A stretch of DNA of 26,084 bases from Promethearchaeati archaeon (GCA_013166835.1 JABLTI010000053.1:1-26084), one strand, 5' to 3'. Positions 5,928 to 24,432 are shown, numbered from the stretch's first letter. Translations and numbers: made by a program. Notes: generated by a model from the letters alone, not told the origin.

Positions 5928-7812
5928 TTAGGTTTCCAATCCTAATTCTTTTAATTTTGCATTGAATTTTTTATTTAGCGCCTCATTAACAAGCTTGCCA
6001 TCAATTTTTCCTCTAACTTGCTCCATCACAAGTCCCATTAGTTTTCCAAGAGCTCCTTGTCCATTATCTATTATGAAATCTAGATTCTCTTTGATAACTC
6101 CATCAATAATTTGGTCTAGTTGTTCTTCTGAAACAAGTTCTAATTTTAAAAACTCCAATGCTACATCCATTTTATCCCTTGGTTTTTCAGCAAAGTGTTT
6201 TAGTAAAGGATCTATAGCTTCTTTTGCTATTTTCTTAGTTTTCAGCAACTCAAAAATATCTTTTATTTTTTTGTCAGTGAGGTTCTCAATTGGCACATTA
6301 TCTCTTGCTAGAGCCTTCATAGTTTGCTCAAGAGTAACAGCCACAAGCATTGGATCAATACCATTTTTTACGAGATCATCAAACAAATCTGCTCTTGTTG
6401 AGATAGCCATTTCTTTAGCGATATCCTCAGGTAAGTTTAGAGTTTTAATATACCGCTCTTCTTTTTTATCAGGTAATTCTGGCAATTCTTCTTCTATTCG
6501 TCTTATTCTAGCATTTGTTATAACTATTGGATAAGAATCAGTATCGGGGTACATTCTTCCTGCACCACTGAGGTATCGTCTGAAGCTCGTTGTTCCATCC
6601 TCATTTGCATGTCTTGTTTCAAATTGTATCTTCTTTCTTTCCTATTACGAAAGCTACAGCATCATTACTTTTACATTTGAAGAATTTGCACAAACTCGCA
6701 ACTTCTTCCTCTTTAACTCCATAATTGAGGAGCTCATCAGTATGTAGAATTCCACCTAATCCTGTAATGACTTTAACTCTTTCAGCTAGTTCTTTACCAA
6801 ATGTTTTCTCAGCTTGGATTTTTTTACTCAGAATCCCTTTCATACCTGGTAATTTGACTCCCTTGATGTTTTGCTTTTCTTTTATTGCTTCTCTCAGTAA
6901 TTTTGATGTTGTTTTTGCGAAAACATCTTTACAGTCTTTAAACTCAGCAAGATAAGTCTCTGAAGTTAATTTCTTTTTTTCCAAAAGTTCCTTTATCTCT
7001 AATAAAGCAAGTTGTCTGTCAACTTCTTGCTTGACATATTCTGGCAACATATCTAAGACTTGTACACCCTTTATTTCGATCCTAGCACCCTTCTCAATGC
7101 TTATATTCAAATCCTGTCGAATTGTTCCTAATCCTCGTTTTACTTTTCCGGTAGCTCGAAGTATACGACCAATCCCCTCAGCAATTAATTTGATTTCATT
7201 TGGATCACTAATAGCAATTGTTTTAGTTACTATTTCAACGAGAGGAATTCCCAAACGATCTACTCTCCAAGTAATCGTACGTCCGATATTTGAGATCTCC
7301 CTGCATGAGTCTTCCTCTATTGCTAGCATATCCAAATTAACTACTCTTCCAGCAGCTTTTATCTTTCCACCAATACCAACAATCATAGATCTTTGAAAAC
7401 CTGTAGGAAGTGATCCATCCAAATATTGTTTTCTATTTACATGTAATTCATCAAGAATATCCATTTGCAATAAACGGGCAATAGCTATTGCTAAATCGAT
7501 AGCATTTGGATCCGGATCAAAAGGTGGTGTTTCATCTATTTCATAACTACATACTGAGTCATGTATTTCATAGACGATTTTCTTTTGTTTCTTGAATTCC
7601 ATAAGTGCAGCTTTGTCGTACTCTCCTAGTTCTGATAAGGTTGGACGCATATGTCTATTAATTGTTACTTGTGGTTCATCTAAACGCAGATCAGTTTTAC
7701 AGTGACAGAAAAGTTTTCGTCCTGTTTTTAGTTGTTGATGTAATTCAAGACCACATTTTAAACCTAAGACGGAATAATCTTTTTGTGGTTTTGTTTTAGC
7801 TGCTTGTGCCAT
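5928..7812 (-). pseudogene. gatE: Glu-tRNA(Gln) amidotransferase subunit E, split by a frameshift at ~6620 (probably an assembly or read error)
   Basis: The N-part has LKCGLELHQQL..KLFC.C, RKQYLDGSLPTGFQRS, DRLGIPLVEI, GLGTIRQDLNISI, GGILHTDEL. After ...KKEDTI-TGA, the +1 frame reads ETRHANEDGTTSFRRYLSGAGRMYPDTD and runs into the C-terminal YqeY-like domain (LMGLVMEQVRGKIDGK). Confidence 0.9.
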
Positions 7813-8028: not shown

Positions 8029-9420
8029 GTGTCTGAGGATTCAAGTAACGATTATCATGGTATAGCAGCAATCTGGTTAGAAGCCCAAGAAATTAAAGTA
8101 TGGTCCAATGTCAATATAAAAACAAAAAAGGGAACCTTCAAAGGTGTACTTATTCCTCGTGGGGAGCAAGGAGATGATAAACACATTGTTTTAAAACTAA
8201 CCTCAGGTTACAATATTGGTCTTAGTTTAGATAGTATTATTGAGATTAAAGCTACAGGCGAGGTTCAAGCTGATTCTAAAATCCCAAATTTGAAGGTTAA
8301 AAAAGATCCAAAGAAACCCACTGTTGTCTTAATTGGAACCGGGGGAACTGTTGCTTCAAAATTGGATTACAGAACAGGAGCAGTTATTCCGGCATTTTCA
8401 CCACAGGAATTATACAACGCAGTCCCAGAATTGGAAAAGATTTGCAATCTTGAAACTATACAGCTTTTTCAGAAATTGAGTGAAAATATTGAACCCGCTG
8501 ATTGGATTATTTTAGCTAATGAAATTGCTAGTTGCTTAGAGAATGTTAATCCTGCTGGGGTAGTTATTGCTCACGGAACTGATACCTTACATTTAACAGC
8601 AGCTGCTTTATCCTTCATGCTTAAAAATATCGATAGACCAATTGTACTTGTAGGTTCTCAAAGAAGCAGTGATAGACCTTCAAGTGATGCGGCAATTAAT
8701 TTAATTAACAGTGTCTATGTTGCTGCGAAATCAGATATTGCTGAAATTTGTGTTTGTATGCACGGAACTTCAGGTGATGCCTATAACCTAATTCATAGGG
8801 GTACTCGCGTCAGAAAAATGCATTCCAGTAGAAGAGATGCATTTCGAACAGTAGGTGATATTCCAATAGCTAAGATTGAAAATAGTAAAATCAAAAATAC
8901 AGGAATAAGCTATCATAAGAGAAACCTTCGTAAAGGGAATCTAGAGGTTGATGCTAAATTAGATGAAAATGTTGGGTTGATTTTTAGCTATCCGGGAATG
9001 AAATTAGAGCAAATTGAGTATTTCCTTGAAAACAACTATAGTGGTTTAGTGATTGCTGGTTCCGGCTTAGGACATGTAAATCAAAAATTAATTAAAACAA
9101 TCTCACGAGCAAAAGAGAAGAATATACCCATATTTATGACCACTCAGTGTTTATGGGGATTTACTGGAATGAATGTATATGAGACTGGGAGAATGCTCTT
9201 AGAAGCAGGGGTCATTCCATTAGCTAATATGCTCCCAGAAGTTGCTTTAGTAAAAGCAATGTGGGTTCTAGGACACACAAAAGAAATTCCATTTGTTAAA
9301 GAATTAATGCAGAAAAATCTAGCAGGAGAGATTACTGAGCGAGAACCTTTTGATGGTTATTTAATTCTCCAAGGAAGAGTGGATAAAAGGATTGACAGAT
9401 TAATTCAGAAAGAAAAGTAA
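8029..9420 (+). CDS. gatD: Glu-tRNA(Gln) amidotransferase subunit D
   Basis: N-terminal GatD domain (VLKLTSGYNIG). Asparaginase-like motifs TGGTVASKLDYRTGAV, HGTDT, GSQRSSDRPSSD, RKMHSSRRDAF. Adjacent and divergent to gatE. Confidence 0.96.
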   Translation: MSEDSSNDYHGIAAIWLEAQEIKVWSNVNIKTKKGTFKGVLIPRGEQGDDKHIVLKLTSGYNIGLSLDSIIEIKATGEVQADSKIPNLKVKKDPKKPTVVLIGTGGTVASKLDYRTGAVIPAFSPQELYNAVPELEKICNLETIQLFQKLSENIEPADWIILANEIASCLENVNPAGVVIAHGTDTLHLTAAALSFMLKNIDRPIVLVGSQRSSDRPSSDAAINLINSVYVAAKSDIAEICVCMHGTSGDAYNLIHRGTRVRKMHSSRRDAFRTVGDIPIAKIENSKIKNTGISYHKRNLRKGNLEVDAKLDENVGLIFSYPGMKLEQIEYFLENNYSGLVIAGSGLGHVNQKLIKTISRAKEKNIPIFMTTQCLWGFTGMNVYETGRMLLEAGVIPLANMLPEVALVKAMWVLGHTKEIPFVKELMQKNLAGEITEREPFDGYLILQGRVDKRIDRLIQKEK

Positions 9421-9456
9421 AACAAGGTAGAGGTATTATAAAAGGAACAAATAGCG

Positions 9457-9879
9457 ATGGCTCTTAGTAACGATATTGTTCAAAGAATAGATGATTCAAG
9501 AGTTGTTCTTGAAAAAGTCTATGAGAAATTAGATCCTGAGAATTACACGAAAGGATACAAAGATATCTGGAAAGTAAGAGCAGAAATCGAATTTGTAGTA
9601 ATTTCGTTGAAACTTCTAAACAATCTTGAAGAAAACGAAATTGGAGTGAAATGGAAAGAAGAATTTTCTCAGACATTAAAGCAAGTAAGATCTGAAAGTA
9701 AGATTCGACAAGTTTTTTTGGAAACGTTTGTTTTGTATAACAAACTTGAGCAGATTGAGAATATTATTGAATTTTACCGAATTTGTTGGAAATTAAAAGA
9801 GAAACTAACTATTCTTCTCAATGTGGTTAAACCAAAACACAAACGAACAAATGAATCTGAATCAAAAGAAAAAAAATAA
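9457..9879 (+). CDS. Hypothetical helical protein
   Basis: 140-aa ORF 36 bp after gatD, followed by a T-run at ~9884-9894. Confidence 0.7.
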   Translation: MALSNDIVQRIDDSRVVLEKVYEKLDPENYTKGYKDIWKVRAEIEFVVISLKLLNNLEENEIGVKWKEEFSQTLKQVRSESKIRQVFLETFVLYNKLEQIENIIEFYRICWKLKEKLTILLNVVKPKHKRTNESESKEKK

Positions 9880-9889
9880 TAGGTTTTTT

Positions 9890-10030
9890 TGTTTCAGAAT
9901 TTTAATTAGGTATGAATTTAAATGAATAGTTTTATGTTAATTCGATGACATCTTTTGATTTACAAAGTAACTATCTTTGTTGGTTGTGCCACACAACCAC
10001 TATCCCCTATTCTTTCGAACTCGGGGAATG
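9890..10030 (-). ncRNA. Putative TnpB omega-RNA (reRNA) overlapping the tnpB 3' end; boundaries approximate
   Basis: Two adjacent hairpins lie in the last tnpB codons: tggttgtg-N3-cacaacca (9981-9999, perfect 8 bp) and acaaag-N7-ctttgt (9962-9980). Omega-RNAs are known to overlap tnpB 3' ends. Confidence 0.55.
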
Positions 10031-11153
10031 CTTTTTTAGCGATGTTTCTTGCAGCGTTAACATCAGCATTAATTACTAGAAAGCAGTTTTTACATACGAA
10101 TAAACCTCGATGTTTTCGATTGCTTCGTGAACAAGAAGTACAAATTGAACAAGTTTGAGAGGTGTACTCCTCAGAAATGAGGAGGACTTTGATTCCTTGT
10201 TCCTCCGCTTTGTACTGTATCATCCGAATAAGTTTGTAGAACGGCACTGAAGAGAATTTCTGGTTGTTTCTCCTATTCATTCGTATATTCTGCTTCCAGT
10301 TCTTGTTTCGTCCGATGACCAATGTTGTAATATTATTAGTTATGCAATGTCGAATAATCGTTCTAGATGCTTTGTGGAGCAGATCATGCAGTTGATTATA
10401 CCGCCATCGCATAAGCGCTTGTTTTCTATTACTATTCCTAAGTTCTTGTTTATTTAGCTGTGCTTGAAATTTTGCCATTCGTTTGTTGAAAAACTGGTTT
10501 ATACTTTTAACAACACCGCCCTTGATGAGTAATCCATCTGACGTGGCTACGAGGTTGTTAATACCTAAATCCAATCCAAGAACTTTTTCTACCTCTCTTT
10601 CCATTATTAGTTTTGCTTCCTTTTCATAGACTAATTCCAATAGGTACTTATCATAGAAGGATTTCAAACGAACAATGGCATGATTCGCTTCGGTGATAGG
10701 TAGTTTCTCAATTGGCACTGCTGGAAAACCTAACTTCATTAATCGTTCTGTTATTCTAACTGTTCCTGTTTTAATCCTCACTTGCTGAGATGCCCAGACA
10801 ACAACATACTTCCCGTTTTTTGGTTGGTACCCAGGAATCCTTGGACGGGCAAAATACTTGTCTGGGTTAATGAACCAGTCTTTTATTGCTGCAGTATATC
10901 CTTTCCATGCATTACTAACCATTAACAATAGTTGTTGTGGAGTTTGAGCTCCTGCTAGAGCTTTGAGTTTAAGGTATTCCTCTTTTCCTTTCATTTTGTT
11001 CCATAACGAGTAGTATCGTACTATCTTCCCTGTTTTAAAGAAAGTTTGGCGAACTAAGTAAGTAGCTGAATTATAGAGGTTTTTAGCTAGCACTGTAAGA
11101 TCCTCGAAAAGCTTCTTTGCTGGCAATTGTATTCGGACTACTCGTTTGACCAT
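9960..11153 (-). CDS. tnpB: RNA-guided endonuclease TnpB with a rearranged RuvC-II
   Basis: AKNLYN N-terminus. RuvC-I GLDLGINNL (D195). RuvC-II strand LVIG (G281) with a downstream ISEEYTS (E328). Zn finger CSIC...CKNC. RuvC-III INADVNAARNI (D364). Tail GDSGCVAQP. Confidence 0.93.
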   Translation of the reverse strand: MVKRVVRIQLPAKKLFEDLTVLAKNLYNSATYLVRQTFFKTGKIVRYYSLWNKMKGKEEYLKLKALAGAQTPQQLLLMVSNAWKGYTAAIKDWFINPDKYFARPRIPGYQPKNGKYVVVWASQQVRIKTGTVRITERLMKLGFPAVPIEKLPITEANHAIVRLKSFYDKYLLELVYEKEAKLIMEREVEKVLGLDLGINNLVATSDGLLIKGGVVKSINQFFNKRMAKFQAQLNKQELRNSNRKQALMRWRYNQLHDLLHKASRTIIRHCITNNITTLVIGRNKNWKQNIRMNRRNNQKFSSVPFYKLIRMIQYKAEEQGIKVLLISEEYTSQTCSICTSCSRSNRKHRGLFVCKNCFLVINADVNAARNIAKKAFPEFERIGDSGCVAQPTKIVTL

Positions 11154-11168
11154 TTTTCTTCAATAAAT

Positions 11169-11190
11169 TATATATACAGCTAGATATATA
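11169..11190. promoter_or_regulatory. Imperfect palindrome just upstream of tnpB (possible element left-end or promoter structure)
   Basis: tatatatacag|ctagatatata: 9 of 11 positions pair. The sequence is AT-rich, so this is only weak evidence. Confidence 0.3.
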
Positions 11191-11337
11191 GTATTTTTAT
11201 AAAGAGTATGCCGAAAGTAATAAACATTTAACTAAAAGAATAATTAATTAAATAGCTTAATGTACAGCTTTTCAAAGGTGTCTTTAAGAAAGAAAATACC
11301 AATACTATATCGATTAAATCGGTTAGAGAGATAAACC

Positions 11338-12897
11338 TTGTCAAATCCACTTACTTGGATAAATGATCCATTATTGTTTGATGAAGAACCATTACAAGTT
11401 AATCTATGGTTAAATGCTAATGAATTATTACAACAAAAACGCAGCAAGGATATCTTTCTCTCAGATGGTCAACACCTAAATCTCTATCCAATAATGGTTC
11501 GTAAAAATGATTTTATACGGAAAAAGACTTCTGATCGAGTCATGGCTAGGTTTCCGTTCCTGGTTATAAATGAAGAAACTCAAGAACAGATAATAAGCAA
11601 AATCCTCCTGATCTCCGAAGTTTCTAGAGACTACTTCTACAAGTCTATTAATAAATCAATCTTACAATGGAAAGGGGATATTCTGAAATATTTGAATAAG
11701 GGAACTCTCCCGTATCCAATAGCGAGATGTTGCTTCGAATTAGTACCAAATTTACACGCTCCAATTAATAATACCTCTTTTCGCTTTACTAGTGCTCGCG
11801 GCGAACCATTCAAGATGCCTACAAAACTCAACAAAGAGTTAGCTTATCTTGCTGGCATGGTCAACGGGGATGGTAATCTCCAAAAATACACTTTGCGAAT
11901 CGTCGATTACTCGATTAAAAATATCAAGCAACTACAAGTAATGTTCCAAAACTACTTTGATCAAACAGGAAATATTATCTTCAAAACACCAAATGCCCCG
12001 GAAGTGGTGATAACCAATCTCTGGGTAGTAAGATTATTCTCATTTTTAACTGGACATCCAATTGGTATGAGAAAATATGATCATTTAAGAGAGCCTTTCA
12101 TCTTCAAGCAAGAACCTTATCGTTCTTATTACTGGTCTGGAGTGATGGATGCAGATGGGAGTTATAAAAATGGGAAAGTATCTTTTGTTAGTGCTTCAAA
12201 GACATTTGCTAAAGATTTTCTACATTACTTGGAAAGTAATAAAATCAAAGGCACTTACACAGAAAGGGAAGATATCGCAGGTGTTGTTTATATTCCAAGT
12301 GTATATCATGATGAACTAAAAGAACTTCTAGTGTGTTTACATCCAGAAAAATCGTTAGATTTTCAAACAATATCCCACGGACACAAAAAGAAAATTGCTC
12401 ATTTCGTGGGATATAAAAATTCATCACAAATTAATGGATTCTTCGATTTTCGATTAATAAATAACTTGAGCATAAGTGGATTAGGTGATTTAATACGTAA
12501 ACTTAGAGGTAATTTAACAAGAAGAGAGTTTGCTAAAAAATGCCATTTAAATGAAAATATCTTACATGCAATTGAAAATGGAAAAATGAGCATAAATATT
12601 CAACATCTAGATGGTATCTTAACAACACACAACATACAACTAATGCCATATCTTTCCCAACAAGAATCAATTCGCTATCATATACGTGCATCTGAAAGAG
12701 TAAAAATAGATACTGAACCAAATGATTATCTAACCTCTCTTTTGAAGCCACTAACCTATCACAAACATAATGTTATCATACCAGAATTTGAAATACAACG
12801 AAAAATAGAAAATCACTTTGATGTTATTCTGAAAGACAATAGAATTAGAAACAAAGTTTTGCTTAAGTATCTGGACTTGTTTATAGAAATGCAATAG
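11338..12897 (+). CDS. Free-standing double-motif LAGLIDADG endonuclease with a C-terminal XRE-type HTH
   Basis: LAYLAGMVNGDGNL and YYWSGVMDADGSY motifs. HTH LGDLIRKLRGNLTRREFAKKCHLNENILHAIENGK. No intein N- or C-terminal splice motifs seen. Confidence 0.85.
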   Translation: MSNPLTWINDPLLFDEEPLQVNLWLNANELLQQKRSKDIFLSDGQHLNLYPIMVRKNDFIRKKTSDRVMARFPFLVINEETQEQIISKILLISEVSRDYFYKSINKSILQWKGDILKYLNKGTLPYPIARCCFELVPNLHAPINNTSFRFTSARGEPFKMPTKLNKELAYLAGMVNGDGNLQKYTLRIVDYSIKNIKQLQVMFQNYFDQTGNIIFKTPNAPEVVITNLWVVRLFSFLTGHPIGMRKYDHLREPFIFKQEPYRSYYWSGVMDADGSYKNGKVSFVSASKTFAKDFLHYLESNKIKGTYTEREDIAGVVYIPSVYHDELKELLVCLHPEKSLDFQTISHGHKKKIAHFVGYKNSSQINGFFDFRLINNLSISGLGDLIRKLRGNLTRREFAKKCHLNENILHAIENGKMSINIQHLDGILTTHNIQLMPYLSQQESIRYHIRASERVKIDTEPNDYLTSLLKPLTYHKHNVIIPEFEIQRKIENHFDVILKDNRIRNKVLLKYLDLFIEMQ

Positions 12898-12958
12898 TTC
12901 TTTTTCTAATTTAATAAAAAGCATTTTTGTAAAGCAATAATGTTCCTTAAATGTACAA

Positions 12959-13150
12959 GAGGGGTATTTCGAGGCATTTAGAGGGTTTAAAATCATATTT
13001 TTACTATTTTAAAGCAACTAGAATTCATCCTCGATTTTAGGTTTCAGACTTTTTTTCGAGTAAATCATATTTCTGGATTTGTGTTTTTTCCCTTGTAGTT
13101 TTTGGAATTTTTTTCGTGTAATTTTATCACTTTTTGGAGTTTTTTTCCAG
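12959..13150. repeat. Degenerate direct repeats upstream of the Cas1-like operon
   Basis: tttttggaatttttttc (13099-13115) matches tttttggagtttttttc (13131-13147) at 16/17. Related copies lie near 13041 and 13070, giving a period of ~29-32 bp. aaatcatattt occurs twice (12990-13000, 13062-13072). GAGG...TTT occurs three times (12959, 12971, 12981). Confidence 0.45.
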
Positions 13151-13193
13151 TTAGAAGTTTAAATAGTATTTCTGTCGAGATAGTGGGTAGGAG

Positions 13194-13952
13194 ATGTTTA
13201 CATTGACTGAGCATCCACTGATTCTTAATCCAGGAACGGAGTTTTCTCTACCAACATTTAACTCTAAAGTTAAATTCTCTGTCGTTTTGGAAGAGGTGCT
13301 GTATACCTTATTGACTTTCTTCTTCCTTAGCGGTAATCTGAAACTAACAAATGTGGTAAATGACCTAATCAATGTGCTCGATCGATCTGACAGAGCCATT
13401 GGTGATGCTTTGAAAACCTTGAAGCAACTGGATTTAATTTCTTATTACCAAGATGGCAGATATAAAACAGTTGAGCTACATTTAGAGAATAAGTTTCTTA
13501 AAAGCGCCATTGCAAGATTCTTTGGTGTATCTGGTTTTACGAAAACAAAATGCCAGAAATTGAAGCGAATGCTAATTGGTTTTTATCCCATTCTTGATCT
13601 TAAAAAAACAATGCCTATGTTTCGAGACGAAACAAAGCGTTTAGATGACTTAATACATGAGCACAAATACCTGTTTGATTGGATACAAAAAGTTGAGGAA
13701 TTAGAAGGATTAGCCAAAACCACTAATTCTATTGAGGATTTTCCGGATGGAAATCCGATTTTATCATTTATTGATCAATTAGTGAGTGCCATAAATTTTC
13801 AGCAATCAATTCAAACTGAAGATCTCTCTGGTTTAAAAGTAACAGAAATTGTATCTGAAATTCTTGAGAAGTTTAAAGAAATCCCTCCATGGTTAGATAC
13901 CGCTGTAATTGGTGGGTCTAATCCTTGGATTATCTTAGAGGATGACTTGTAA
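13194..13952 (+). CDS. Winged-helix protein A of the Cas1-like operon
   Basis: wHTH-like segment LTNVVNDLINVLDRSDRAIGDALKTLKQLDLISYYQDGRYKTVEL. Preceded by AGGAG. Its stop overlaps the next start (TAATG at 13950-13954). Confidence 0.7.
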   Translation: MFTLTEHPLILNPGTEFSLPTFNSKVKFSVVLEEVLYTLLTFFFLSGNLKLTNVVNDLINVLDRSDRAIGDALKTLKQLDLISYYQDGRYKTVELHLENKFLKSAIARFFGVSGFTKTKCQKLKRMLIGFYPILDLKKTMPMFRDETKRLDDLIHEHKYLFDWIQKVEELEGLAKTTNSIEDFPDGNPILSFIDQLVSAINFQQSIQTEDLSGLKVTEIVSEILEKFKEIPPWLDTAVIGGSNPWIILEDDL

Positions 13953-15958
13953 TGCGATTTGCGAAGAATGAGCTAAAAGAACGAGTGTATTCGCTTTTTA
14001 CTCAACAAGAAGAAGGTTTTGATGGTTTTACATGTAGTGAAGTAGCTGAAATCATTAAGAAAAAATCTAAAGATCTCAACCAAGTGCTGAAAGGTTTAAC
14101 TGATTCCGGCAAATTATCTCGAGAGAAAACTAAGAAAGGTGTTAAGCAAAAAATCTATAATTATAATTTACCAATCGCAGAAAAAATAGTCGAAAAGAAA
14201 AATAAGAAGAAAAACAAGAAGAAGATATGTAACAAGTGTCAAAGATATTCAGGATTAGAAAAATGTATTCTGCTGAAACTTGTCCATGAAGTAACTCCTT
14301 GGGCATTACGGGGAGAGCTAAAGGAACGATTTGAAGCAATAAGTTTAGATGGCGTAACTGGTTGCAACTACTTTGATCCAAGAAATTCCGGGCAGTGTAA
14401 GAGTAAAACCATGAAGGTGTTTATCGAGAAAAATACCGACAGCATTACTTTTGAGTTTCGGTGTCCCATTAAACGATGTAAGAAAATTATTGATGAACTT
14501 AGTATGTCGCTTCAAAGAAAGAATATCGGAGCAAATACCCTTTATTGCCCTCATTGTGGTTCCCCGATTAAATTTGGTTTTAATCAAGGTTTAAATCGCT
14601 ATCAAGTTCGATTTTGGGATAGTCGGTTTGATATTTTACAGAGAGATTATGAGAGACTCACAGGAATGAAGCTAAAAAGTAGATACGTTGAGGACCGTTC
14701 TCATGGGTTCTCAATTGTGAAAGAAGGAAGTTTTTACTTGGATTTTGACGAAGAAGCAATCTATGTAGGTAATGAACTATCTCCTGTTGACTTTAAAGAC
14801 TCAAAGGATCTTGCGTATTATTCTCTCAAACAATTGAATTATATTGCTGTGAAACACGAAGAGGATTATTTATACCTCAAACAGAAGCTCCATGATTTTG
14901 ATGGTACATCCGGGGGTGCTCTGTATCCCAAACTTAATCTCATACATTCTAAGAGTGTTATTGAAAGTGTTGATCCGACTCTGAAAGAGATAGGGGGGAA
15001 CGAGATTCTAATTGCTACTGGAGCAACTTTTTATCCTATGTTTTATTGCAACATACTTAATCGTAGAGCTGCTCTTGAGAAGAAATTAACTGACATGGTG
15101 GAAGGAGATCTTAAACAGGATTTCAACGTTGCATTAAAGCTCTTTGACAGGGATATCAAGAAATATTCTGCTCCTTGGCAATTGTCTTACTTAGAATGGC
15201 AGCGATTAGAAGGTGGGTTTGGAAGTGTAATGCATGTACCATTCAAAAAAGAAGCCGAGAAATATGGTTTCGATAACATCTCTCGCGAAAAAGCTCGAAA
15301 AGTCCGGGGAGAACATTATATGAAATATGGGTTATTCACAGCACGAACAAAAAAAGCGTGTTTAGAAAATGGTGTAAACAAGGTAACTGACAACTATATC
15401 AAGGAAGAAATTTATAATGTTCAATTTGTTCCTTGGGATGGCTTACGAGGATGGTGTCACAGAAGATATCCTTTTGGGCTCTTTCTGGATAATATTGAGA
15501 CACCAAGAACGGTTACACCAATTTGGGTAAATGAAGTAATAAGAAACGAAGAAATAACCCCTGCTGATTTTGAAACAGACCGTGGGAAACGATTTGAGGA
15601 TTTCTATCTTATAGAACAAAACTCTCATGCACATGAAGTTGTTAAACGCGTGAGTAAACAGATTTTGCAAACAAAAGTTACTCTGACAACTGGTGAGGAT
15701 ACAACCATTAAGAGAATGATAAACCGGGATGTCTCACAAATCAAGAGAATGCTCAATCGCCTACCAAATTTTACAGTTGATTTGTTTCTTGAGAAAAAGA
15801 AGAACAGTCAAGTTAAGACTATTTGGAAGAAATTAGAAGAAACAAATAATAGTGCTTTCTTAACAACTAAGGAATTTCGATTGCTTCAGAAGCATGTTCG
15901 AAAATTCTTCAAAGAAGAGTTTTCCTTTGCTCCAAGTACTATATCTAGGATAATGTAA
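13952..15958 (+). CDS. Highly diverged Cas1-like integrase fused to an N-terminal wHTH and two Cys4 metal-binding modules
   Basis: wHTH in aa 1-75. Cys sets C93/96/105/138 and C171/176/199/202. Beta-rich segment FSIVKEGSFYLDFDEEAIYVG..YSLKQLNYIAV resembles the Cas1 N-domain. Catalytic-like motifs in Cas1 order: RLEGG (E420), GF..SR, CLENG, GWCH (H503), LFLDNIETPR (D513/E516), ITPADF. Confidence 0.72.
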   Translation: MRFAKNELKERVYSLFTQQEEGFDGFTCSEVAEIIKKKSKDLNQVLKGLTDSGKLSREKTKKGVKQKIYNYNLPIAEKIVEKKNKKKNKKKICNKCQRYSGLEKCILLKLVHEVTPWALRGELKERFEAISLDGVTGCNYFDPRNSGQCKSKTMKVFIEKNTDSITFEFRCPIKRCKKIIDELSMSLQRKNIGANTLYCPHCGSPIKFGFNQGLNRYQVRFWDSRFDILQRDYERLTGMKLKSRYVEDRSHGFSIVKEGSFYLDFDEEAIYVGNELSPVDFKDSKDLAYYSLKQLNYIAVKHEEDYLYLKQKLHDFDGTSGGALYPKLNLIHSKSVIESVDPTLKEIGGNEILIATGATFYPMFYCNILNRRAALEKKLTDMVEGDLKQDFNVALKLFDRDIKKYSAPWQLSYLEWQRLEGGFGSVMHVPFKKEAEKYGFDNISREKARKVRGEHYMKYGLFTARTKKACLENGVNKVTDNYIKEEIYNVQFVPWDGLRGWCHRRYPFGLFLDNIETPRTVTPIWVNEVIRNEEITPADFETDRGKRFEDFYLIEQNSHAHEVVKRVSKQILQTKVTLTTGEDTTIKRMINRDVSQIKRMLNRLPNFTVDLFLEKKKNSQVKTIWKKLEETNNSAFLTTKEFRLLQKHVRKFFKEEFSFAPSTISRIM

Positions 15959-15965
15959 GGATGAT

Positions 15966-16661
15966 ATGAAAATGACAAAGAAGAAAAAGAAAACGAATAA
16001 TGGTATTGATCCATTAGTCAATCTAGTTATGGTTGTTTCCCATGTTTTAGTTGACAATGATTTTCGGATTCGAAAGAAGACGAATAGAAAACTGTACTAT
16101 TCAGCTCTAAAGGAAACAGTAGCTAAGGGATTTATTCGGACACATGGATTTGTTAACAATTGGTTGTTGGAGTTATTTGAACTTGGAGAGATTTCTCCGG
16201 TAACTTTTCATGATATTATGAAAAAACTACCTTGGTCTTGGGATAAGACTCGTGAGTATTTTGATTCATTAGAAGAAATTGATATTTTACAGTATTCAAG
16301 AGATTCTTGTGGAAGGAAAACATGCACACTTGTTACTGACGGTAAGAATAGAGCAAGACAAGTTGAAAATCTGATTTGTTTTTACAAAAAAAGTGAAGAA
16401 CACTCTCAAATACCTTTTACTGATGTACGAAGGGATTACTTGGATTATTATGGAAAATTGTATGAGTGGCTTAGTAAAAAGACTGAAACAGGAAAAATGT
16501 CTTCAAAGGTTACACAAGCAGCAAGCAACAAAACTGACAAATTCATCTGGGATTTAGTTAAGATCATAGGTAAAGCAAAGAAAAATGGGTTGGAATCTGA
16601 TCTATTGCAGTTCCTGAAGGAAAATCCATTGTTAATATATTCTTTAGAGAGGATTGGTTAA
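15966..16661 (+). CDS. Winged-helix protein B, apparent distant paralog of 13194-13952
   Basis: wHTH-like segment FHDIMKKLPWSWDKTREYFDSLEEIDILQYSRDSCGRKTCTL. Shares C-terminal motifs with protein A (LICFY/LIGFY, LYEWLSK/LFDWIQK). Confidence 0.65.
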   Translation: MKMTKKKKKTNNGIDPLVNLVMVVSHVLVDNDFRIRKKTNRKLYYSALKETVAKGFIRTHGFVNNWLLELFELGEISPVTFHDIMKKLPWSWDKTREYFDSLEEIDILQYSRDSCGRKTCTLVTDGKNRARQVENLICFYKKSEEHSQIPFTDVRRDYLDYYGKLYEWLSKKTETGKMSSKVTQAASNKTDKFIWDLVKIIGKAKKNGLESDLLQFLKENPLLIYSLERIG

Positions 16662-16663
16662 TT

Positions 16664-17422
16664 TTGGTAGTAATGGATTATGAACTAAATCTTAGTGCCA
16701 CAGAGTTTCTCTATTTTCTGGATTGCCCACAGAAATTCAGGCTTTACCGTATTCTCAATCCTTTACCAAACAAGGATGAATTCATGAATAGTAGAAGCAG
16801 AACTTTAGCTCATTACAAAAAGAGAGGATATAAAGGTAAGAAAAATAAGGGAATTGAATATCACCATTTCTTTGAAACTTTTCATAAGGAATATGCAAGG
16901 TTCATCATTAATCCAATTCCTCCATTAGAAATACAAGAGGATAATGTGATGTTGCTTTATTGGGTTATTCAGCAAGAAAAGTACTTTGAAACAAAAGAGG
17001 ACTGTTACTGGTATCCATTCGGAAGAGAAGTTCGATTAATGACTGAAAAACAACGAGGAAAAATTGATTGTATTGAGCTTTGTGAGGACAAAAATGGTTT
17101 AAGAATAATTGATTACAAACCAACTCCTGAACCTAATGATCAGCTAACATTGCTGTTCTATGCGAAATTGCTTAATGATTATCGCTTCGAGGATACTGAA
17201 GATGAGAGATTTGATTATGAAGTTTTAGAAATTGGTTGCTATTATTATGAAATGGGTGTAAAGAAAGTCTATGGTTTAACAGAAGAAAACAGACAATCAT
17301 TTGAAAGGATTCTAATGGATACACAAGGAAAAATATCGAATAATGAATTCTTCTTGAATAAAAGCTCTTGTTGTAATTGTAACTTTAAGACGATTTGTAA
17401 GATTGAAATAAGTCAAAGCTAA
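16664..17422 (+). CDS. Cas4-like / AddB-type PD-(D/E)XK nuclease with an Fe-S cluster
   Basis: LSATEF..FLDCPQK (first Cys), GIEYH, EVRL, GKID, IIDYK, Q....FY and C-terminal C.NCNFKTIC. A likely ATG start is at 16673. Confidence 0.85.
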   Translation: MVVMDYELNLSATEFLYFLDCPQKFRLYRILNPLPNKDEFMNSRSRTLAHYKKRGYKGKKNKGIEYHHFFETFHKEYARFIINPIPPLEIQEDNVMLLYWVIQQEKYFETKEDCYWYPFGREVRLMTEKQRGKIDCIELCEDKNGLRIIDYKPTPEPNDQLTLLFYAKLLNDYRFEDTEDERFDYEVLEIGCYYYEMGVKKVYGLTEENRQSFERILMDTQGKISNNEFFLNKSSCCNCNFKTICKIEISQS

Positions 17423-17457
17423 AAATTTCCTTGTGAGAATCATAAAATTAGAATAAC

Positions 17458-18240
17458 TTAAACCATTTTTCTGCAAATTAAAATACCTGTTATAATCCTT
17501 ATTAAATATAGCATTATTACTTTCTTTCCTAGCTCACTTATTTCTATAAATGAAGGATCAGGTCTGTTTCTTCTATCATAATAATATAAACAATCTTCTT
17601 CTTCATCAATATAATAATCTTGATGAACAATAGCATTCCTTAAATTAGCATCAAGAAAATCCATTATAGGATTTAGTGTTTTTAAAATCTTATCTTTTTC
17701 AAAATAATCTTTAAGTGACTTAATATAGAACCAATTTCCATAATTTTCTGTATTTTCACGAACTAGTTGTTTATTCAATAGATTTTTATAAACAGGCTTA
17801 ACAAAAAGAGAAAATTGAGTTTCCCATTCTCTCACATAAGCATTTAGTAAAGTAAAGTTTGGTATCTTAAAGAGTTCTAATTGTTCTTTTTCCTCTTTAG
17901 TTATTTTAATATTTGAGAAATCAAGAAACCTAATTTGAATTTGAATTAATGGTCCTAAGAATTGTATTGTCTCAATAGCGAAATATAAGAGTCTATTCTT
18001 TCGTACTTCATCTGAAAGGTTTTCTCCTAAAGCAAAAATAGGGATATTTTCAGCGATACTATCTAGTTTCTCAAAAGCTTCTAAAAGATCTTTTTTCTTT
18101 AGAGAATCAATAAAAGGTTCTGTTTTTTGATTTATATATTGACACAATTTCTTAGGATCATCAATAGAATCAGAACCAAAAAATGATTTCATCTCCTCTA
18201 ATAATGTATCTTCATATCCTTGATTTTTCATTTTGAACAA
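17458..18240 (-). CDS. Helical protein with a HEPN-like RxxxxH motif (possible RNase or toxin)
   Basis: NLRNAIVHQDY (R-N-A-I-V-H) near the C-terminus of an alpha-helical protein. The gene is very AT-rich. Confidence 0.55.
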   Translation of the reverse strand: MFKMKNQGYEDTLLEEMKSFFGSDSIDDPKKLCQYINQKTEPFIDSLKKKDLLEAFEKLDSIAENIPIFALGENLSDEVRKNRLLYFAIETIQFLGPLIQIQIRFLDFSNIKITKEEKEQLELFKIPNFTLLNAYVREWETQFSLFVKPVYKNLLNKQLVRENTENYGNWFYIKSLKDYFEKDKILKTLNPIMDFLDANLRNAIVHQDYYIDEEEDCLYYYDRRNRPDPSFIEISELGKKVIMLYLIRIITGILICRKMV

Positions 18241-18294
18241 GTACAGAAGAAGAAGGTAAGATTAATAAAGATATATAATTGATTCCTGGATCAC

Positions 18295-18960
18295 TCAGAC
18301 TTTCCCATAGCATTCTGCTGCTTTCTGCGGATTCTTGGTTTTCTCGTAACAATCTCCCAAGTTTTTCCAGGCTTCCTTGTGGTCAGGCTCAAGTGCGACT
18401 GTTTCCGAGTAGAAGAGGATGGCTTTCGGGTAAACCTCCAATGATTGGTAAATCAATCCTAAGTGGTACAAAGCAAAAGCGTTTTTCCCATCAAACTCCA
18501 GCACTTCGTAGAACCCTTTCTTCGCTTCCTCCAGTTTGTCCAAGGCATAGTAACTGTAGCTTAAGCGGTTGAGGGTTTCCTTCCGCTTATAATCTAGTCC
18601 CAGAGCTTTTTTGTAGTGATCAATGGCTTTCTGCACTCGTCCCTGATTGAAATAAGCGAATCCCAAATGATCCCAGTGAGTAGGGTTTCTTGGTTCTTGT
18701 TCCGTTGGTTTCTTGAGGAATTTCTCTGCTTTAAAGGGATTGCCTATGTGGAGATAAATCATCCCAATCATAGTCCAAGGAAGAGCTTTTTCCAAGTCTT
18801 TGTCTAGAAATTGCAACCAGAGATCTATTGCCTGGAGGAATTCTTTTTTATCCACTTGTTCGGTTGCAGTCAAATCGAACAATTCCTCTTCTGTAATCTG
18901 CGTTCCTTTCGCTAAACTGTCTGGAAACCACTTCTCGTCAAGCATAAGCCTTACTCTCAC
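18295..18960 (-). CDS. Tetratricopeptide repeat protein
   Basis: About five 34-aa TPR units (HWDHLGFAYFNQGRVQKAIDHYKKALGLD, ALYHLGLIYQSL, AWKNLGDCYEKT..PQKAAECY). GTG start. Confidence 0.88.
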   Translation of the reverse strand: MRVRLMLDEKWFPDSLAKGTQITEEELFDLTATEQVDKKEFLQAIDLWLQFLDKDLEKALPWTMIGMIYLHIGNPFKAEKFLKKPTEQEPRNPTHWDHLGFAYFNQGRVQKAIDHYKKALGLDYKRKETLNRLSYSYYALDKLEEAKKGFYEVLEFDGKNAFALYHLGLIYQSLEVYPKAILFYSETVALEPDHKEAWKNLGDCYEKTKNPQKAAECYGKV

Positions 18961-19087
18961 AGTATTTTGTCGCGATTATCTTTTTAAAGACCTAATTTTT
19001 AGCCAGAAAACAAAAAAACAAAGAAGACGCAATACTACTTGTTGAGAAAAGAATTTTTTTCTATTCCCAAGAGAAAACGGAAATATA

Positions 19088-19117
19088 GGACGGGGAGGAA
19101 GAAGAAAACCCCCGTCC
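19088..19117 (-). terminator. GC-rich hairpin downstream of the beta-propeller gene
   Basis: ggacgggg (19088-19095) and ccccgtcc (19110-19117) form a perfect 8-bp stem in AT-rich DNA, ~40 nt after the stop. Confidence 0.5.
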
Positions 19118-19155
19118 ACTAGTTTTTAATGTTCTTCTTTTAGAAATCGAAGTAA

Positions 19156-21093
19156 CTATTTTTTCCTTCTTCTTATGAGAACCACTGCTACAACGATTCC
19201 CAGTGTAGCTGTCAATATAGCTGAAGTGAAGATAATTCCTGATTCCACTGTGGTCGTAACCGTATTATTTTGAGTAATGGTTTCAGGCGGAGGAGTAATA
19301 GTGATAGTTTCTGGTGGAGGAGTATAACCTGGGTAGCTTGATGGATCAGTTGGATCTGTTCCAGTAATAATTTCAACGTAATCATTATACCCGTCCCCAT
19401 CAGTGTCATGTTTAGTGGGATCTGTTCCTATAATTACTTCTTCATTATCAAAGAGGAGATCATTATCTGTGTCTTGATCATTTGGATCGGTTAAATAAAT
19501 GAAAATCTCATCACTATCTATTAGAGAATCATCATCTGAGTCATTATCAATGGGACTTGTTCCATAAGTATAAACTTCCTCATCATCCAAAAGACCATCA
19601 TCATCGGAATCAATATCCAAAGGATCAGATCCATAAAGCATTATTTCTTCCCCGTCCAGCAAATTATCATTATCACAATCATCATCAAGAGGATCTGTGT
19701 AATAATAAGATATTTCCTCCCAATCATCCAATAAATCATTATCTGTATCTGATTTTAATGGATCGGTATTATAGAAGCTTTCAGTAAGATCATCCATATA
19801 ATCACTGTCACTATCCATTTGCCCGGTATGGAAAACGGAACCTCTGAAGCAATACCAAGGGGCAATCCCACTTGAGCTGACTCCAGTTAAACCTAAGCAA
19901 TAGAGATTATTGTCATATGATCCTATGAGAATTTCATAAATACCATCTGTATCTAAATCAGCAACACAAGGAGAAGAAGCAATCCAATCACCTATTATGT
20001 AGCTCCATTCTAAACCACCAGTGTGACTAATACAGTAAAGCTTGTCATCAGTTGACCCTACAAGTACTTCTAAGGTGCCATCATTATCGAGATCAGCTAC
20101 AGCGGGAGAAGAATGAATTGAGTCACCTGTTGTGTAGTTCCATTCTTCAGTCCCGAAATGACTAATACAGTAAAGCTTGTCATCAGTTGACCCTACAAGT
20201 ACTTCTAAGGTGCCATCATTATCGAGATCAGCTACAGCAGGAGATGACAGGATATAACTACCTGTTGTATAGCTCCATTCCACTCCACCTGTATGATTAA
20301 AACAGTAAAGCTTGTAATCAAATGACCCTACAAGTACTTCTAAGGTGCCATCATTATCGAGGTCAACTATAGTAGGAGAAGATTGAATCCAATCCCCTGT
20401 TGTGTAGCTCCACTCTAAACCACCAGTGTGATTAAAACAGTAAAGCTTGTTATCTTCTGATCCTACCAACACTTCTAAGGTACCATCATTATCGAGATCA
20501 GCTACAGCAGGAGAAGACCTTATCCTACCATTTGTCGTATAGTTCCATTCTTCAATCCCTAAATGACTGATACAATAAAGCTTGTAATCCCAAGACCCTA
20601 CAAGTACTTCTAAAGTACCATCATTATCAAGATCAGCTACAGCAGGAGAAGAATAAACATAACTACTTGTTGTGTAGTTCCATTCTTCAGTCCCAATATG
20701 ACTGATACAGTAAAGCTTGTGATCCTCTGACCCTACAAGTACTTCTAGAGTGCCATCAGCATCTAAGTCAGCTATTGTAGGAGAAGGATAGATATCATTA
20801 CTTGTTGTATAGTTCCATTCTTCAATTCCTAAATGACTGATACAGTAAAGCTTGTAATCCCTTGACCCCACAAGTACTTCTAGTGTGCCATCAGCATCGA
20901 GATCAGCTACAGTAGGAGAGGAATAAATGTATTTACCTGTTGTATAATTCCACTTCTGATACACTCCCATTGCCTGAGGGAGGAATTCATCATCAACACT
21001 CTCATTTGTTTTCGCGTCGATTTTTATTGGTTTAACGAAAACAACAACTATTAAAAAAATGATTACTACAAAACATTTTCTTGAGACTTTCAT
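19156..21093 (-). CDS. Cell-surface protein: signal peptide, 8-blade FG-GAP/PQQ-like beta-propeller, TSP3-like Ca-binding repeats, Pro/Thr linker and TM anchor
   Basis: Eight 45-aa repeats (WNYTT...SSPAVADLDNDGTLEVLVGS.D.KLYC). About seven DxDxDxLxDxxE...TDP repeats. TPPPETIT occurs twice. C-terminal TM ends in RRRKK. Confidence 0.9.
   Translation of the reverse strand: MKVSRKCFVVIIFLIVVVFVKPIKIDAKTNESVDDEFLPQAMGVYQKWNYTTGKYIYSSPTVADLDADGTLEVLVGSRDYKLYCISHLGIEEWNYTTSNDIYPSPTIADLDADGTLEVLVGSEDHKLYCISHIGTEEWNYTTSSYVYSSPAVADLDNDGTLEVLVGSWDYKLYCISHLGIEEWNYTTNGRIRSSPAVADLDNDGTLEVLVGSEDNKLYCFNHTGGLEWSYTTGDWIQSSPTIVDLDNDGTLEVLVGSFDYKLYCFNHTGGVEWSYTTGSYILSSPAVADLDNDGTLEVLVGSTDDKLYCISHFGTEEWNYTTGDSIHSSPAVADLDNDGTLEVLVGSTDDKLYCISHTGGLEWSYIIGDWIASSPCVADLDTDGIYEILIGSYDNNLYCLGLTGVSSSGIAPWYCFRGSVFHTGQMDSDSDYMDDLTESFYNTDPLKSDTDNDLLDDWEEISYYYTDPLDDDCDNDNLLDGEEIMLYGSDPLDIDSDDDGLLDDEEVYTYGTSPIDNDSDDDSLIDSDEIFIYLTDPNDQDTDNDLLFDNEEVIIGTDPTKHDTDGDGYNDYVEIITGTDPTDPSSYPGYTPPPETITITPPPETITQNNTVTTTVESGIIFTSAILTATLGIVVAVVLIRRRKK
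19330..19815 (-). repeat. ~7 thrombospondin type-3-like (DxDxDG) calcium-binding repeats
   Basis: Units of ~22-23 aa such as DTDNDLLDDWEE...TDP and DTDGDGYNDYVE...GTDP. Confidence 0.8.
19873..20952 (-). repeat. 8 x 135-bp tandem coding repeat
   Basis: Near-identical nucleotide blocks (e.g. cagtaaagcttgt, ccctacaagtacttctaaggtgccatcattatcgagatcagctac) recur every 135 bp. Confidence 0.92.
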
Positions 21094-21429
21094 TAAATAC
21101 CCACCCCGAAAAGGATACCATTATATTGTCTTGAGGATTCTTGTATGTTTCGCAAAAAAATGCGATTAGTGGGAGGGTATGGGTATCGTAATTTTCAACG
21201 GTATAATCAGAGAAGGAGAATGCTAAAAGAATAAAGATCATTAACCTACTGGCAAAGGAACCGTCTGGGACCTGTTTTCAATATACAAATATAAGAATGG
21301 GATATTTAAGGAAGTTTTTATACCAAAAAAGTTGTGTACATATTAATTCGATAGAATTATAATAATGAAGTATGTATTTAAAAACAAGGTTTAGACACAA
21401 CAAATCAATTAGTTGGAGAAAATAACAAA

Positions 21430-22690: not shown

Positions 22691-24432
22691 TTATGATTGC
22701 TTCTTCTTACTCCTCTTTCTAGTAGCAAATACTGTGATAACTGACAACATAACGATAGAAGCAAACACTTGTAATGGTGTAAAGCCCGGATTCAGTAGTG
22801 ATGAAGGATCAAACCCTGCTTTATTCATATAATATTTAGCTAAATCATGGTTTGCTGTATATACGGTAACATCAGATTTTACAAAAGTTCCAAATTTAAG
22901 CGATAATGGTGTTTCAATAATTTCAACTTCAACATCTAGTAAATCTAACATGATATTTTTGTCAATCATATGGGCAATTGCTTTGCGAACAGCTAGTCCT
23001 TTCGTCATAGTTTCATCTTCGGTAAGGGTTTGATCTATTAACGCTGGGCAATAATCTGATTTGAGATTAAACCCAAAATAAATCACATCATATTCATCTC
23101 TTGTTTGTTTCTGATAAGGAGCACTAGCATAATCAGTCATGTAATCTCTATAGTCTTTGAAGATATCTAGCTTCCCAGACTCAAATTCCAATCCTTTCAC
23201 GTTAAGATCAAAAAGAAAGCGGACTCTGTATTCTGCCATATCTAGATCTTCATTATAACCGAGTGGAGTGGAACCCCACCAATCCAGATTACTGTTGAAG
23301 ATACTTTCTACACCTTCACTAAAGCTATTAAGATAATACATACCAGTCCCTAAACAATTTTCTCCATAATTTAGCCAGTTTTCACTAGAAGTGTCAGGTA
23401 TTCCTTCAACATCAACATTTACATTAAGATAATGTTCTGGAAGGATAAGCTTTGTCAAATCATTTAGAGCTGGGGCATACGGTTGTAGACCAGCTTTGGT
23501 TAAATTACCATCAATATTGATTTGGACTGTGGAATTATCTATTTTTTCAACTTGGTCTATCCAATTGAAAAATGTCCCAATAGAAGATACTTCTTGATAC
23601 ATTTTTATCGAGAACAATACATCATCTGCATCAAATGGTTCATCAAGATAGATATGATCTATATCAGGTTGCCAAGTTACATTGTCTCTTAGATTTAATG
23701 TTAGAATTGTTTGATTAGAATTGAAAGTCCAACTTTCTGCTAAAACACCAACAGGAATTTGATTCTTATTGATTCTTATGAGTGGTTCAGAGATCAATGA
23801 AGCGAAGAATTCATCTTCTATATACAATGGATTTAAAATATCCCAATCACTCGGGTCAATATAATCTACAAACAGCCTAACAGATTATCATGGGAAACAT
23901 AAGTTGTGATTTTATTGAACATAGGAATAACAGGCAGCACATTAACCATTAAATTCTCTTGCCAATCGTGATAAATTCCTTCTCTTAATGTGGTATTTGT
24001 TTCAGCTAAACCTTCAAGCATTTTCTGCTCACTAAAATCTTGAAAAGCTATCTCATTATCTAAACCCCAATAATTTGCTGATCCTTCTTCTGAGAAGACA
24101 TATGTAGGATTAACATCAAATCCTGGCCAATCAACATCAATCAATACAATATCAAATTCTTTTGAGAGAACCGCAGCTTCAAAAACCCCGCTAGGATATG
24201 GATAAATGATACTATCAATACGGATTCTTTTGAGTTCTTGAGCTATTAATATCGCAAGATGATCTATCTCACTATCACTTCTACTTAATATCCGAACTCT
24301 GAAAAAGAAATCATCTTGTGAAGCTGCCTGGATTTTTACAGAAGCAATTGCTGAAAAAAGTATAATAGTTGAAATTAGTGCAACAAGTATAATTGATTTC
24401 TTTCTTTTAGTTAGGTTCAACTTAGAATTCAT
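22691..24432 (-). pseudogene. Family-5 (Opp/Dpp) ABC solute-binding protein, circularly permuted, split by a frameshift at ~23870; PGF-CTERM-like anchor
   Basis: ORF 23866-24432 has a signal peptide plus OppA C-terminal motifs. The alternative frame (FVDYIDPSDWDILNPLYIED) continues into OppA N-terminal motifs (LAESW, LRDNVTW, FDADDVLFS, GTGMY, VRKAIAHMIDK, AKYYMNKAGF). The C-terminus is PGF + TM + RKRSKKK. Confidence 0.8.

Follow-up and report, generated by a model that had tools for sequence, protein, structure and literature searches.

Cas1 enzymes that operate outside CRISPR are central to ideas on the origin of adaptive immunity from transposons and, to our knowledge, only the casposases have been tested among them. 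In Asgard archaea, the summary of Makarova et al. 2020 given in PMC8730458 mentions 'a distinct form of Cas1' in ARAMP systems and describes Cas1 homologs as 'possibly associated with novel MGE' (mobile genetic elements). In the text of Altae-Tran et al. 2023 (PMC10691335), aCas1-associated TnpBs lie in repeat-flanked loci where aCas1 is proposed to be the transposase, and a variable region downstream of tnpB is followed by the motif GTTCACTCA. We analyse here a stretch of 26,084 nucleotides from a Promethearchaeati archaeon (GCA_013166835.1 JABLTI010000053.1:1-26084; the window), in which four genes (13194-17422) form the core, kept across loci, of a Cas1 module that is specific to Asgard archaea and lacks a CRISPR array ('aCas1'); the archaeon is of the Heimdall type. 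An earlier note on this DNA had inferred a third type of Cas1 module, a candidate new integrative or defence system. The novelty of the concept has to be given up, since diverged Asgard Cas1 proteins and aCas1-TnpB loci are already in print (PMC8730458, PMC10691335), and the locus belongs to this published kind as far as these texts describe it. The note had allowed that the locus might match a described family: it matches a described kind, its identity with a particular published group not being established by those descriptions.

Compared with the Cas1-Cas2-Cas4 module of CRISPR adaptation, the locus has in common a predicted Cas1 fold with conserved acidic and histidine residues and a four-cysteine Cas4 in the same operon; it differs in that two small partners (about 230-250 aa) flank cas1, and no Cas2, array or canonical Cas1 was found here. 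The operon, on the + strand, encodes partner A (252 aa, 13194-13952), aCas1 (668 aa, 13952-15958), partner B (231 aa, 15966-16661) and a Cas4-family PD-(D/E)xK nuclease (252 aa, TTG start, 16664-17422). The open reading frames (ORFs) and the junctions (TAATG with a 1-nt overlap, a 7-nt gap GGATGAT, then a 2-nt gap) bear out the coupling that the earlier note had described in the order winged helix-turn-helix (wHTH)-A, Cas1-like, wHTH-B, Cas4-like, an order constant in 9/9 genome loci of the family, where cas4 is missing solely at the contig end of L033 and is truncated in L034.

The 668-aa protein gives nothing over the cut-off in Pfam or NCBIfam, PF01867 included, and its homologs are rare: 21 in 5.8 billion clusters, named solely 'hypothetical protein, Candidatus Heimdallarchaeota', and 28 clusters among 1.84 billion representatives in a second search. 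Its AlphaFold model, built on a 19-sequence alignment, reaches a predicted local distance difference test (pLDDT) of 73, and less than 50 in the loop of H503. It comprises a separate winged helix (residues 5-75; matched by Z-alpha and ArsR proteins with a VIA-align Z near 10), a cysteine-rich segment with eight Cys between residues 93 and 202 that are invariant in 19 sequences, and a putative Cas1 N-domain followed by a catalytic helical domain (about 250-665). The claim of the earlier note that this protein has a Cas1 fold is upheld by two structural comparisons. In Foldseek, every listed row with E<=1e-3 is a Cas1 or casposase chain, and the best has an E of 1.3e-7 and a probability of 1.0 over some 370-390 aligned columns. 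In VIA-align, where helical proteins can attain a Z of about 13-14 by chance, values of 16.7, 15.6 and 14.9 were obtained; the first is that of residues 334-665 with the Cas1 of A. fulgidus (4n06; root-mean-square deviation 3.7 over 250 residues), and the M. mazei casposase 6opm gives a Z of 14.9. The top 30 rows are Cas1 or casposase throughout, and several cover both domains (206-664).

E420, H503 and D513 are invariant in the 19 aligned sequences and E516 is conserved in at least 90% of them. We take the H+10/+13 spacing of these residues to be that of E. coli Cas1. The mapping of these positions onto canonical Cas1 is indirect and passes through a paralog family of the same genus (578-703 aa; full-length homology, hhalign E 8e-58): E420/H503/D513/E516 align with the D/H/D/E positions of the paralogs, whose H/D/E are in register with the canonical Cas1 of sister genomes (hhalign E 0.0014) and which pass the PF01867 cut-off with 28.4 bits once neighbouring segments are counted. 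The PADLOC Cas1 model also matches aCas1 directly (residues 481-602, E 3.6e-5). From model and alignments together, we accept the protein as a true, if extremely diverged, Cas1, with E420, H503 and D513 as predicted catalytic-type residues.

The N-terminal DNA-binding module of the aCas1 paralogs, with its wHTH and Cys-rich parts, is reused in another context. At L093 (G074:C235), a gene at 9163-11208 (- strand) encodes a 681-aa protein that shares homology with this module in its C-terminus (482-677; hhalign E 3e-12). Genes for a 500-aa protein and a split DEAD-box helicase come after it, and a TnpB-LAGLIDADG pair adjoins. A 618-aa protein beside another such pair (L092), tried as a Cas1 candidate, is an FkbH-like host gene product instead.

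The fourth gene product passes PF12705 (46 bits vs a cut-off of 22). With C21, D135, K152, C236, C239 and C245 invariant in 11 sequences, it has the PD-(D/E)xK motifs and the one N-terminal and three C-terminal cysteines of the Cas4-like nuclease announced in the earlier note. The 'twin winged-helix partners' of that note are plausible, no more firmly than that for either one. Partner A, with weak ArsR/SmtB signals (SmtB E 0.0066), is a probable ArsR/SmtB-like winged helix at residues 53-94. Partner B has no domain signal of its own and a model too poor for a fold search; an H-H-H-strand-strand pattern at residues 60-122 (pLDDT 50) points to a possible winged helix, and its profile matches that of partner A weakly (hhalign E 4.7e-4, probability 33%). 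A complex prediction for aCas1 and partner A, made without controls, scored 0.00. In the reading of the earlier note, the wHTH proteins would take the place of Cas2/IHF.

As the earlier note had stated, the window contains no Cas2 or PolB (Pfam) and no array (TRF, Rfam); Rfam gives no family match in it. A search for Cas2 (PF09827) detected it in G075 and G072 only, not in this genome (G000), G074 or G077, and canonical Cas1 was not found in this genome. A crude k-mer scan of the same genome gave no CRISPR array, and arrays often remain unassembled in metagenome-assembled genomes. The supposition that no cas2, canonical cas1 or array acts in trans is therefore supported within a genome that is 85% complete.

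The aCas1 family is found in 8 of the 10 other genomes of one Heimdallarchaeial genus and in 0/72 genomes from the rest of the class. A single genome has as many as 11 matches, and the gene is broken in 3/9 genome loci. The genomic contexts differ between loci. Among 12 metagenome loci, counting contigs that reach far enough, wHTH-A lies upstream in 8/8, wHTH-B downstream in 8/8 and cas4 in 6/6. The genes thus co-occur elsewhere in the same order, as the earlier note had anticipated, and because this order is kept across genome and metagenome loci the four-gene arrangement is far from chance. The four-gene unit of the note is real but incomplete: a gene for a LAGLIDADG-HTH protein (helix-turn-helix; 519 aa, 11338-12897, + strand; Pfam, alignment, synteny) had been overlooked and is a constant fifth member, lying upstream of the operon in every one of the nine genome loci. 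Both its motifs keep their acidic residues (D178 in GDG; D271/D273 in DADG). The conserved unit is the operon, this gene and a non-coding leader, and is larger than first noted.

The leader of the operon (12944-13193, + strand) is better conserved than the operon genes. It contains a 23-nt block (12952-12974) that is identical in seven modules and, across 11 genomes, is confined to them. Its initial 12 nt, TGTACAAGAGGG, are invariant in 13/13 matching loci, from 17 loci of the family with enough upstream sequence, also where protein identity is down to about 34%. A conserved palindrome follows at 12975-13030 (TCGAGG...TTTAAAAT / ATTTTAAA...CCTCGA), in which one-sided changes preserve G-U pairing on the + strand and which might serve as an operator or form an RNA hairpin. 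Compensatory change was seen in just 2/46 predicted pairs of a leader RNA structure, for which we make no claim. Three direct repeats of about 29 nt occupy 13035-13153, one unit less in L031; the segment between them is not hypervariable between close copies, and its two sequence types track overall divergence.

The neighbours of this unit vary. TnpB adjoins the module in just 2/9 loci, and in four of the nine, the LAGLIDADG gene has on its upstream side, in divergent orientation, Cas7/Csm3-like RAMP genes (PADLOC E 2e-8 to 2e-4) together with a partner family. Extra genes occur between the LAGLIDADG gene and wHTH-A in L035, L039, L108 and L113, on the upstream side of the leader block where the block exists (L039, L108, L113). 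In L036 (G077:C9), a 1747-aa NERD-NACHT protein is encoded directly 3' of cas4 (11529-16772), and two copies, L036 and L037, have YokU-like genes upstream. With ARAMP and the other Asgard Cas1 homologs as they are reported, the family shares the lack of an array, the restriction to Asgard archaea, a very diverged Cas1 and distinct forms of Cas4. The Cas7/Cas5-like RAMP genes adjoining four of the nine related loci are a further likeness to ARAMP, and some of the other Asgard Cas1 loci have been proposed as new mobile elements (PMC8730458). The copy in the window differs from ARAMP as described there: no ARAMP-type RAMP genes (Cas7/Cas5) were found in its island, and it has TnpB instead.

The module lies in an inserted island of 11,393 bp (9947-21339), whose borders, flanking repeat and presence or absence in natural populations can be read directly from sequence comparisons. 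G078, G080 and G074, whose flanks are about 91% identical, lack the island, and in G075 and G081, compared at the gene level only, the flanking genes are adjacent, so that these genomes also are without it. It is flanked by the direct repeats ATGTTAATTCGAT (9934-9946) and ATATTAATTCGAT (21340-21352), which agree over 10 nt exactly or over 13 nt with one mismatch; ATGTTAATTCGAT is single-copy at the empty sites of G078 and G080, and G074 reads ATGCTAATTCGAT there. The neighbours in the window are housekeeping genes (ribosomal proteins S11/S4/S13, GatD/GatE; Pfam), a region that the island recently entered or left. An empty joint (9936 to 21343, with 10 letters fitting both sides) is present in contigs of 4/4 public metagenome runs from three studies, flank contigs end at 9946 or begin at 21343 (0-5 differences in runs X1, X3 and X4, 81 in X7), and the depth of the island in metagenome contigs is about half that of its flanks; both alleles therefore coexist in one population. 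No circular junction of the island ends was seen among the contigs listed, an assembly product that drops rare forms, and the runs listed as containing the locus include no RNA run. In run X7, the gene for a 260-aa orphan that follows cas4 here is replaced by 8.4 kb of other DNA, the break being at the cas4 stop. Lying inside the same inserted island and swapped in another population, the downstream genes behave as expected from the cargo idea of the earlier note.

The note had found no effector gene in the window. It had missed TnpB, encoded in the same island (397 aa, 9960-11153, - strand; OrfB_IS605 5e-18, TNB 2.5e-22 in Pfam; copies elsewhere) and facing outwards at its end, with a stop 13 nt from the border; aCas1 is 2.8 kb off. 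TnpB is an RNA-guided nuclease. A divergent intergenic region (11154-11337), kept among copies, is common to tnpB and the LAGLIDADG gene. The TnpB-side terminus (GACATC..., 9947-10120, - strand) overlaps the 3' end of tnpB and is predicted to form a stable omega-RNA-like scaffold fold (z -3.2; 0/200 shuffles equal). It is preceded by 'AT' in 8/8 copies, the DNA beyond it is host flank, and it recurs in TnpB-only, TnpB-LAGLIDADG and TnpB-LAGLIDADG-paralog-aCas1-Cas4 units. Apparent duplications around six other copies of the TnpB end turned out to be chance matches inside genes only. The distal terminus (...AAAAAAGTTGTGTAC, 21169-21339) is common to a 2.6-kb element on contig C107 of the same genome (14156-16741; L074:2166-4763), around which both island termini recur and which carries only a gene for a 591-aa alpha/beta-hydrolase. 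This element is absent at its site in G074, G078 and G080, genomes in which the hydrolase gene occupies other places and lacks the termini, as if a non-autonomous element had captured cargo. A second island of the family, in L034 (G075:C16, 2908-16918), measures 14 kb, has its own 498-aa type of TnpB and is absent from contig G075:C61 of the same assembly. Its 1.65-kb TnpB unit is present in dozens of copies across the genus.

As described in the text of PMC10691335, the aCas1-TnpB loci called Cas1H-Asgard-1 and -2 share with the window a diverged Asgard Cas1 and a TnpB in one repeat-flanked locus, a TnpB 3' end near the element end (13 nt here), a conserved T before variable DNA, to be compared with the 'AT' in 8/8 copies here, and the lack of a Y1 or serine transposase alongside. 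They differ in that GTTCACTCA is not near tnpB here (six window matches with at most one mismatch vs 6.8 expected) and in that TnpB adjoins so few of the modules. Our literature search found no report of the island borders, the empty site, the leader block or the five-gene core, some of which the main text of Makarova 2020 and the figures of Altae-Tran may hold.

With IS200/IS605 insertion sequences (IS), the island shares asymmetric ends, TnpB at one end and a predicted structured 3' RNA region, and short TnpB-only copies carry its terminus. It differs by its length of 11.4 kb with cargo, by the 10-13 bp duplication, peel-and-paste transposition making none, and by the lack of Y1 TnpA (PF01797), found in 0/5 genomes of the genus and, in a control search, in 6/14 reference genomes. 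A serine recombinase occurs in just 1/5 genomes of the genus, and the island ORFs gave no tyrosine integrase domain in Pfam. With casposons, the island shares a Cas1-family enzyme outside CRISPR, extra DNA-binding domains, a Cas4-like nuclease in the element and a target duplication of similar size, 10-13 bp here and 14-15 bp in casposons. It differs by the N-terminal position of the HTH in aCas1, which is C-terminal in casposons, perhaps by the length of the duplication, which varies between insertions (10-13 nt here, 4 nt in G075:C16, none in C107), and by the absence of PolB from its ORFs (Pfam). A PolB gene beside the G074 copy, considered as an element gene, belongs to the host, with a syntenic counterpart of 95% identity in G000:C147. 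The comparison with empty sites proposed in the earlier note yielded a direct repeat of 10-13 bp but, again as a difference from casposons, no terminal inverted repeats.

The model we propose, and to which we give a little less than an even chance, is that of an array-less aCas1 module in a mobile island with aCas1 as its integrase. Because the island is flanked by a 10-13 bp duplication, a staggered-cut integrase such as Cas1 is suspected, and for the integrase role itself, taken alone, the odds seem about even. In inserting the island, aCas1 would attack the target in a staggered, casposase-like manner that generates the duplication, and the DNA ends would be processed by Cas4, an Fe-S nuclease. 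Recognition of element or target DNA would fall to the winged-helix parts, the invariant leader block being a possible site. The RNA-guided TnpB, together with the LAGLIDADG protein, would favour retention or homing through cuts at empty or target sites. The model is supported by the Cas1 fold and the conserved catalytic-type residues, by traits of a mobile element (one genus, many and partly broken copies, differing contexts), by the empty sites and the second element with both termini, by the failure to find a rival transposase and by the proposal in PMC10691335. Several observations weigh against it. The island has asymmetric ends of the TnpB-IS type, and the best inverted pair reaches 76% over 33 nt with one arm within a gene. 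Past the end of cas4, the leader block has no inverted counterpart (13 loci; mean best match 6.46 vs a null of 6.79, P 0.94). The island border coincides with the cas4 stop in G074 and G075:C89 and lies 3.9 kb beyond it in the window. A long duplication is seen at one of three resolved insertions: the joint of the G075:C16 island shares only CCAT (4 nt), and the C107 element inserted without duplication, the target being changed by 11-18 nt. TnpB copies with the island's terminus exist in G078, a genome without aCas1 match (83% complete), and copies of the G075:C16 type of TnpB element in G078 and G080, neither of which has an aCas1 match (83% and 69% complete). Cas7-like RAMP genes occupy the place of TnpB in 4/9 related loci, which would fit a defence-type ARAMP equally well. 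Lastly, profile searches by themselves miss Cas1: the aCas1-family profile did not reach it in the PDB, nor in Pfam, and gave no hhalign match to four canonical Heimdall Cas1 sequences. That failure, the medium confidence of the model with its poorly defined H503 loop, and the Z values that helical proteins reach by chance would also fit a generic helical-bundle likeness in an unrelated DNA-binding operon. We consider it very improbable that the large protein is no functional relative of Cas1, in view of the uniform Cas1/casposase rows up to Z 16.7, several over both domains, of the sequence links through PADLOC, PF01867 and the H/D/E register, of Cas4 as a constant neighbour and of invariant residues at the spacing expected for Cas1.

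On account of the asymmetric ends, the differing borders, the inconsistent duplications and the TnpB copies without aCas1, we keep as main rival, though a less likely one, the possibility that the module travels as passive cargo. On this view, a defence or regulatory system without an array, derived from CRISPR and corresponding to the Cas1/Cas4 part of an ARAMP-type locus, would be moved by TnpB-type IS ends, by recombination or by an enzyme acting in trans, and aCas1 would act on foreign DNA or on the locus itself instead of on the island ends. The island termini that also bound a hydrolase-only element, the cassette termini that are not conserved and the often defence-like neighbours (NERD-NACHT, HerA-like, HEPN-like motif) speak for it, as do the Cas7/Csm3-like RAMP genes of 4/9 loci, which match ARAMP with 'a distinct form of Cas1' as summarized in PMC8730458. 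It accounts less well for several diverged and broken copies per genome, unusual for defence and typical of selfish elements, and no other transposase was found to replace the staggered-cut integrase that a 10-13 bp duplication requires. We regard as improbable a capture machine in which aCas1-Cas4 would insert DNA at a fixed site by the leader block, or would supply guides to TnpB or RAMP effectors, a primitive kind of array-free CRISPR adaptation. The invariance of the 12-nt core TGTACAAGAGGG in the 13 matching loci, the extra genes upstream of the block in L039, L108 and L113, the exchange of cargo exactly at the cas4 stop and the variable number of leader repeats (L031 minus one unit) are in its favour; the inter-repeat segment, not hypervariable among close copies, the failure to find arrays, the absence of GTTCACTCA near tnpB and the host flank in place of variable DNA past the TnpB end are against it. 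The alternate pairing of the cassette with TnpB or Cas7-like RAMPs also suggests an array-less acquisition machine for whichever RNA-guided effector adjoins, with DNA inserted at the leader block or guide segments renewed, an idea to which we likewise give little credit.

The cargo of the island in the window lies on the - strand. The 260-aa orphan (17458-18240) carries an RNAIVH motif (Rx4H, HEPN-like) and gives a weak Csm6 match (E 0.005); neither the other loci of the family nor the genome yielded a homolog. It is followed by a tetratricopeptide repeat (TPR) protein (18295-18960) and an FG-GAP propeller protein (19156-21093), both identified by Pfam search. The FG-GAP gene contains a 135-nt unit repeated 7.5 times in tandem (19943-20957; 78% matches), and related FG-GAP genes are close to two other copies of the module. 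Outside the island, GatE is split here (208 + 397 aa, 5928-7812) vs a single 646-aa ORF in G078, G080 and G074, and a solute-binding protein is split (378 + 188 aa, 22691-24432) vs 603 aa; these could be frameshifts or assembly errors.

In conclusion, the locus offers for bench tests of Asgard aCas1 the exact ends of an island, its empty target and a natural non-autonomous element with the same ends, together with an invariant candidate binding site of 12-23 nt and a defined set of five proteins. The pairing of one cassette with either lineage of RNA-guided effectors bears on how adaptation and effector modules became linked. If it were true, an array-less acquisition machine would be a living intermediate between Cas1 transposons and CRISPR adaptation.

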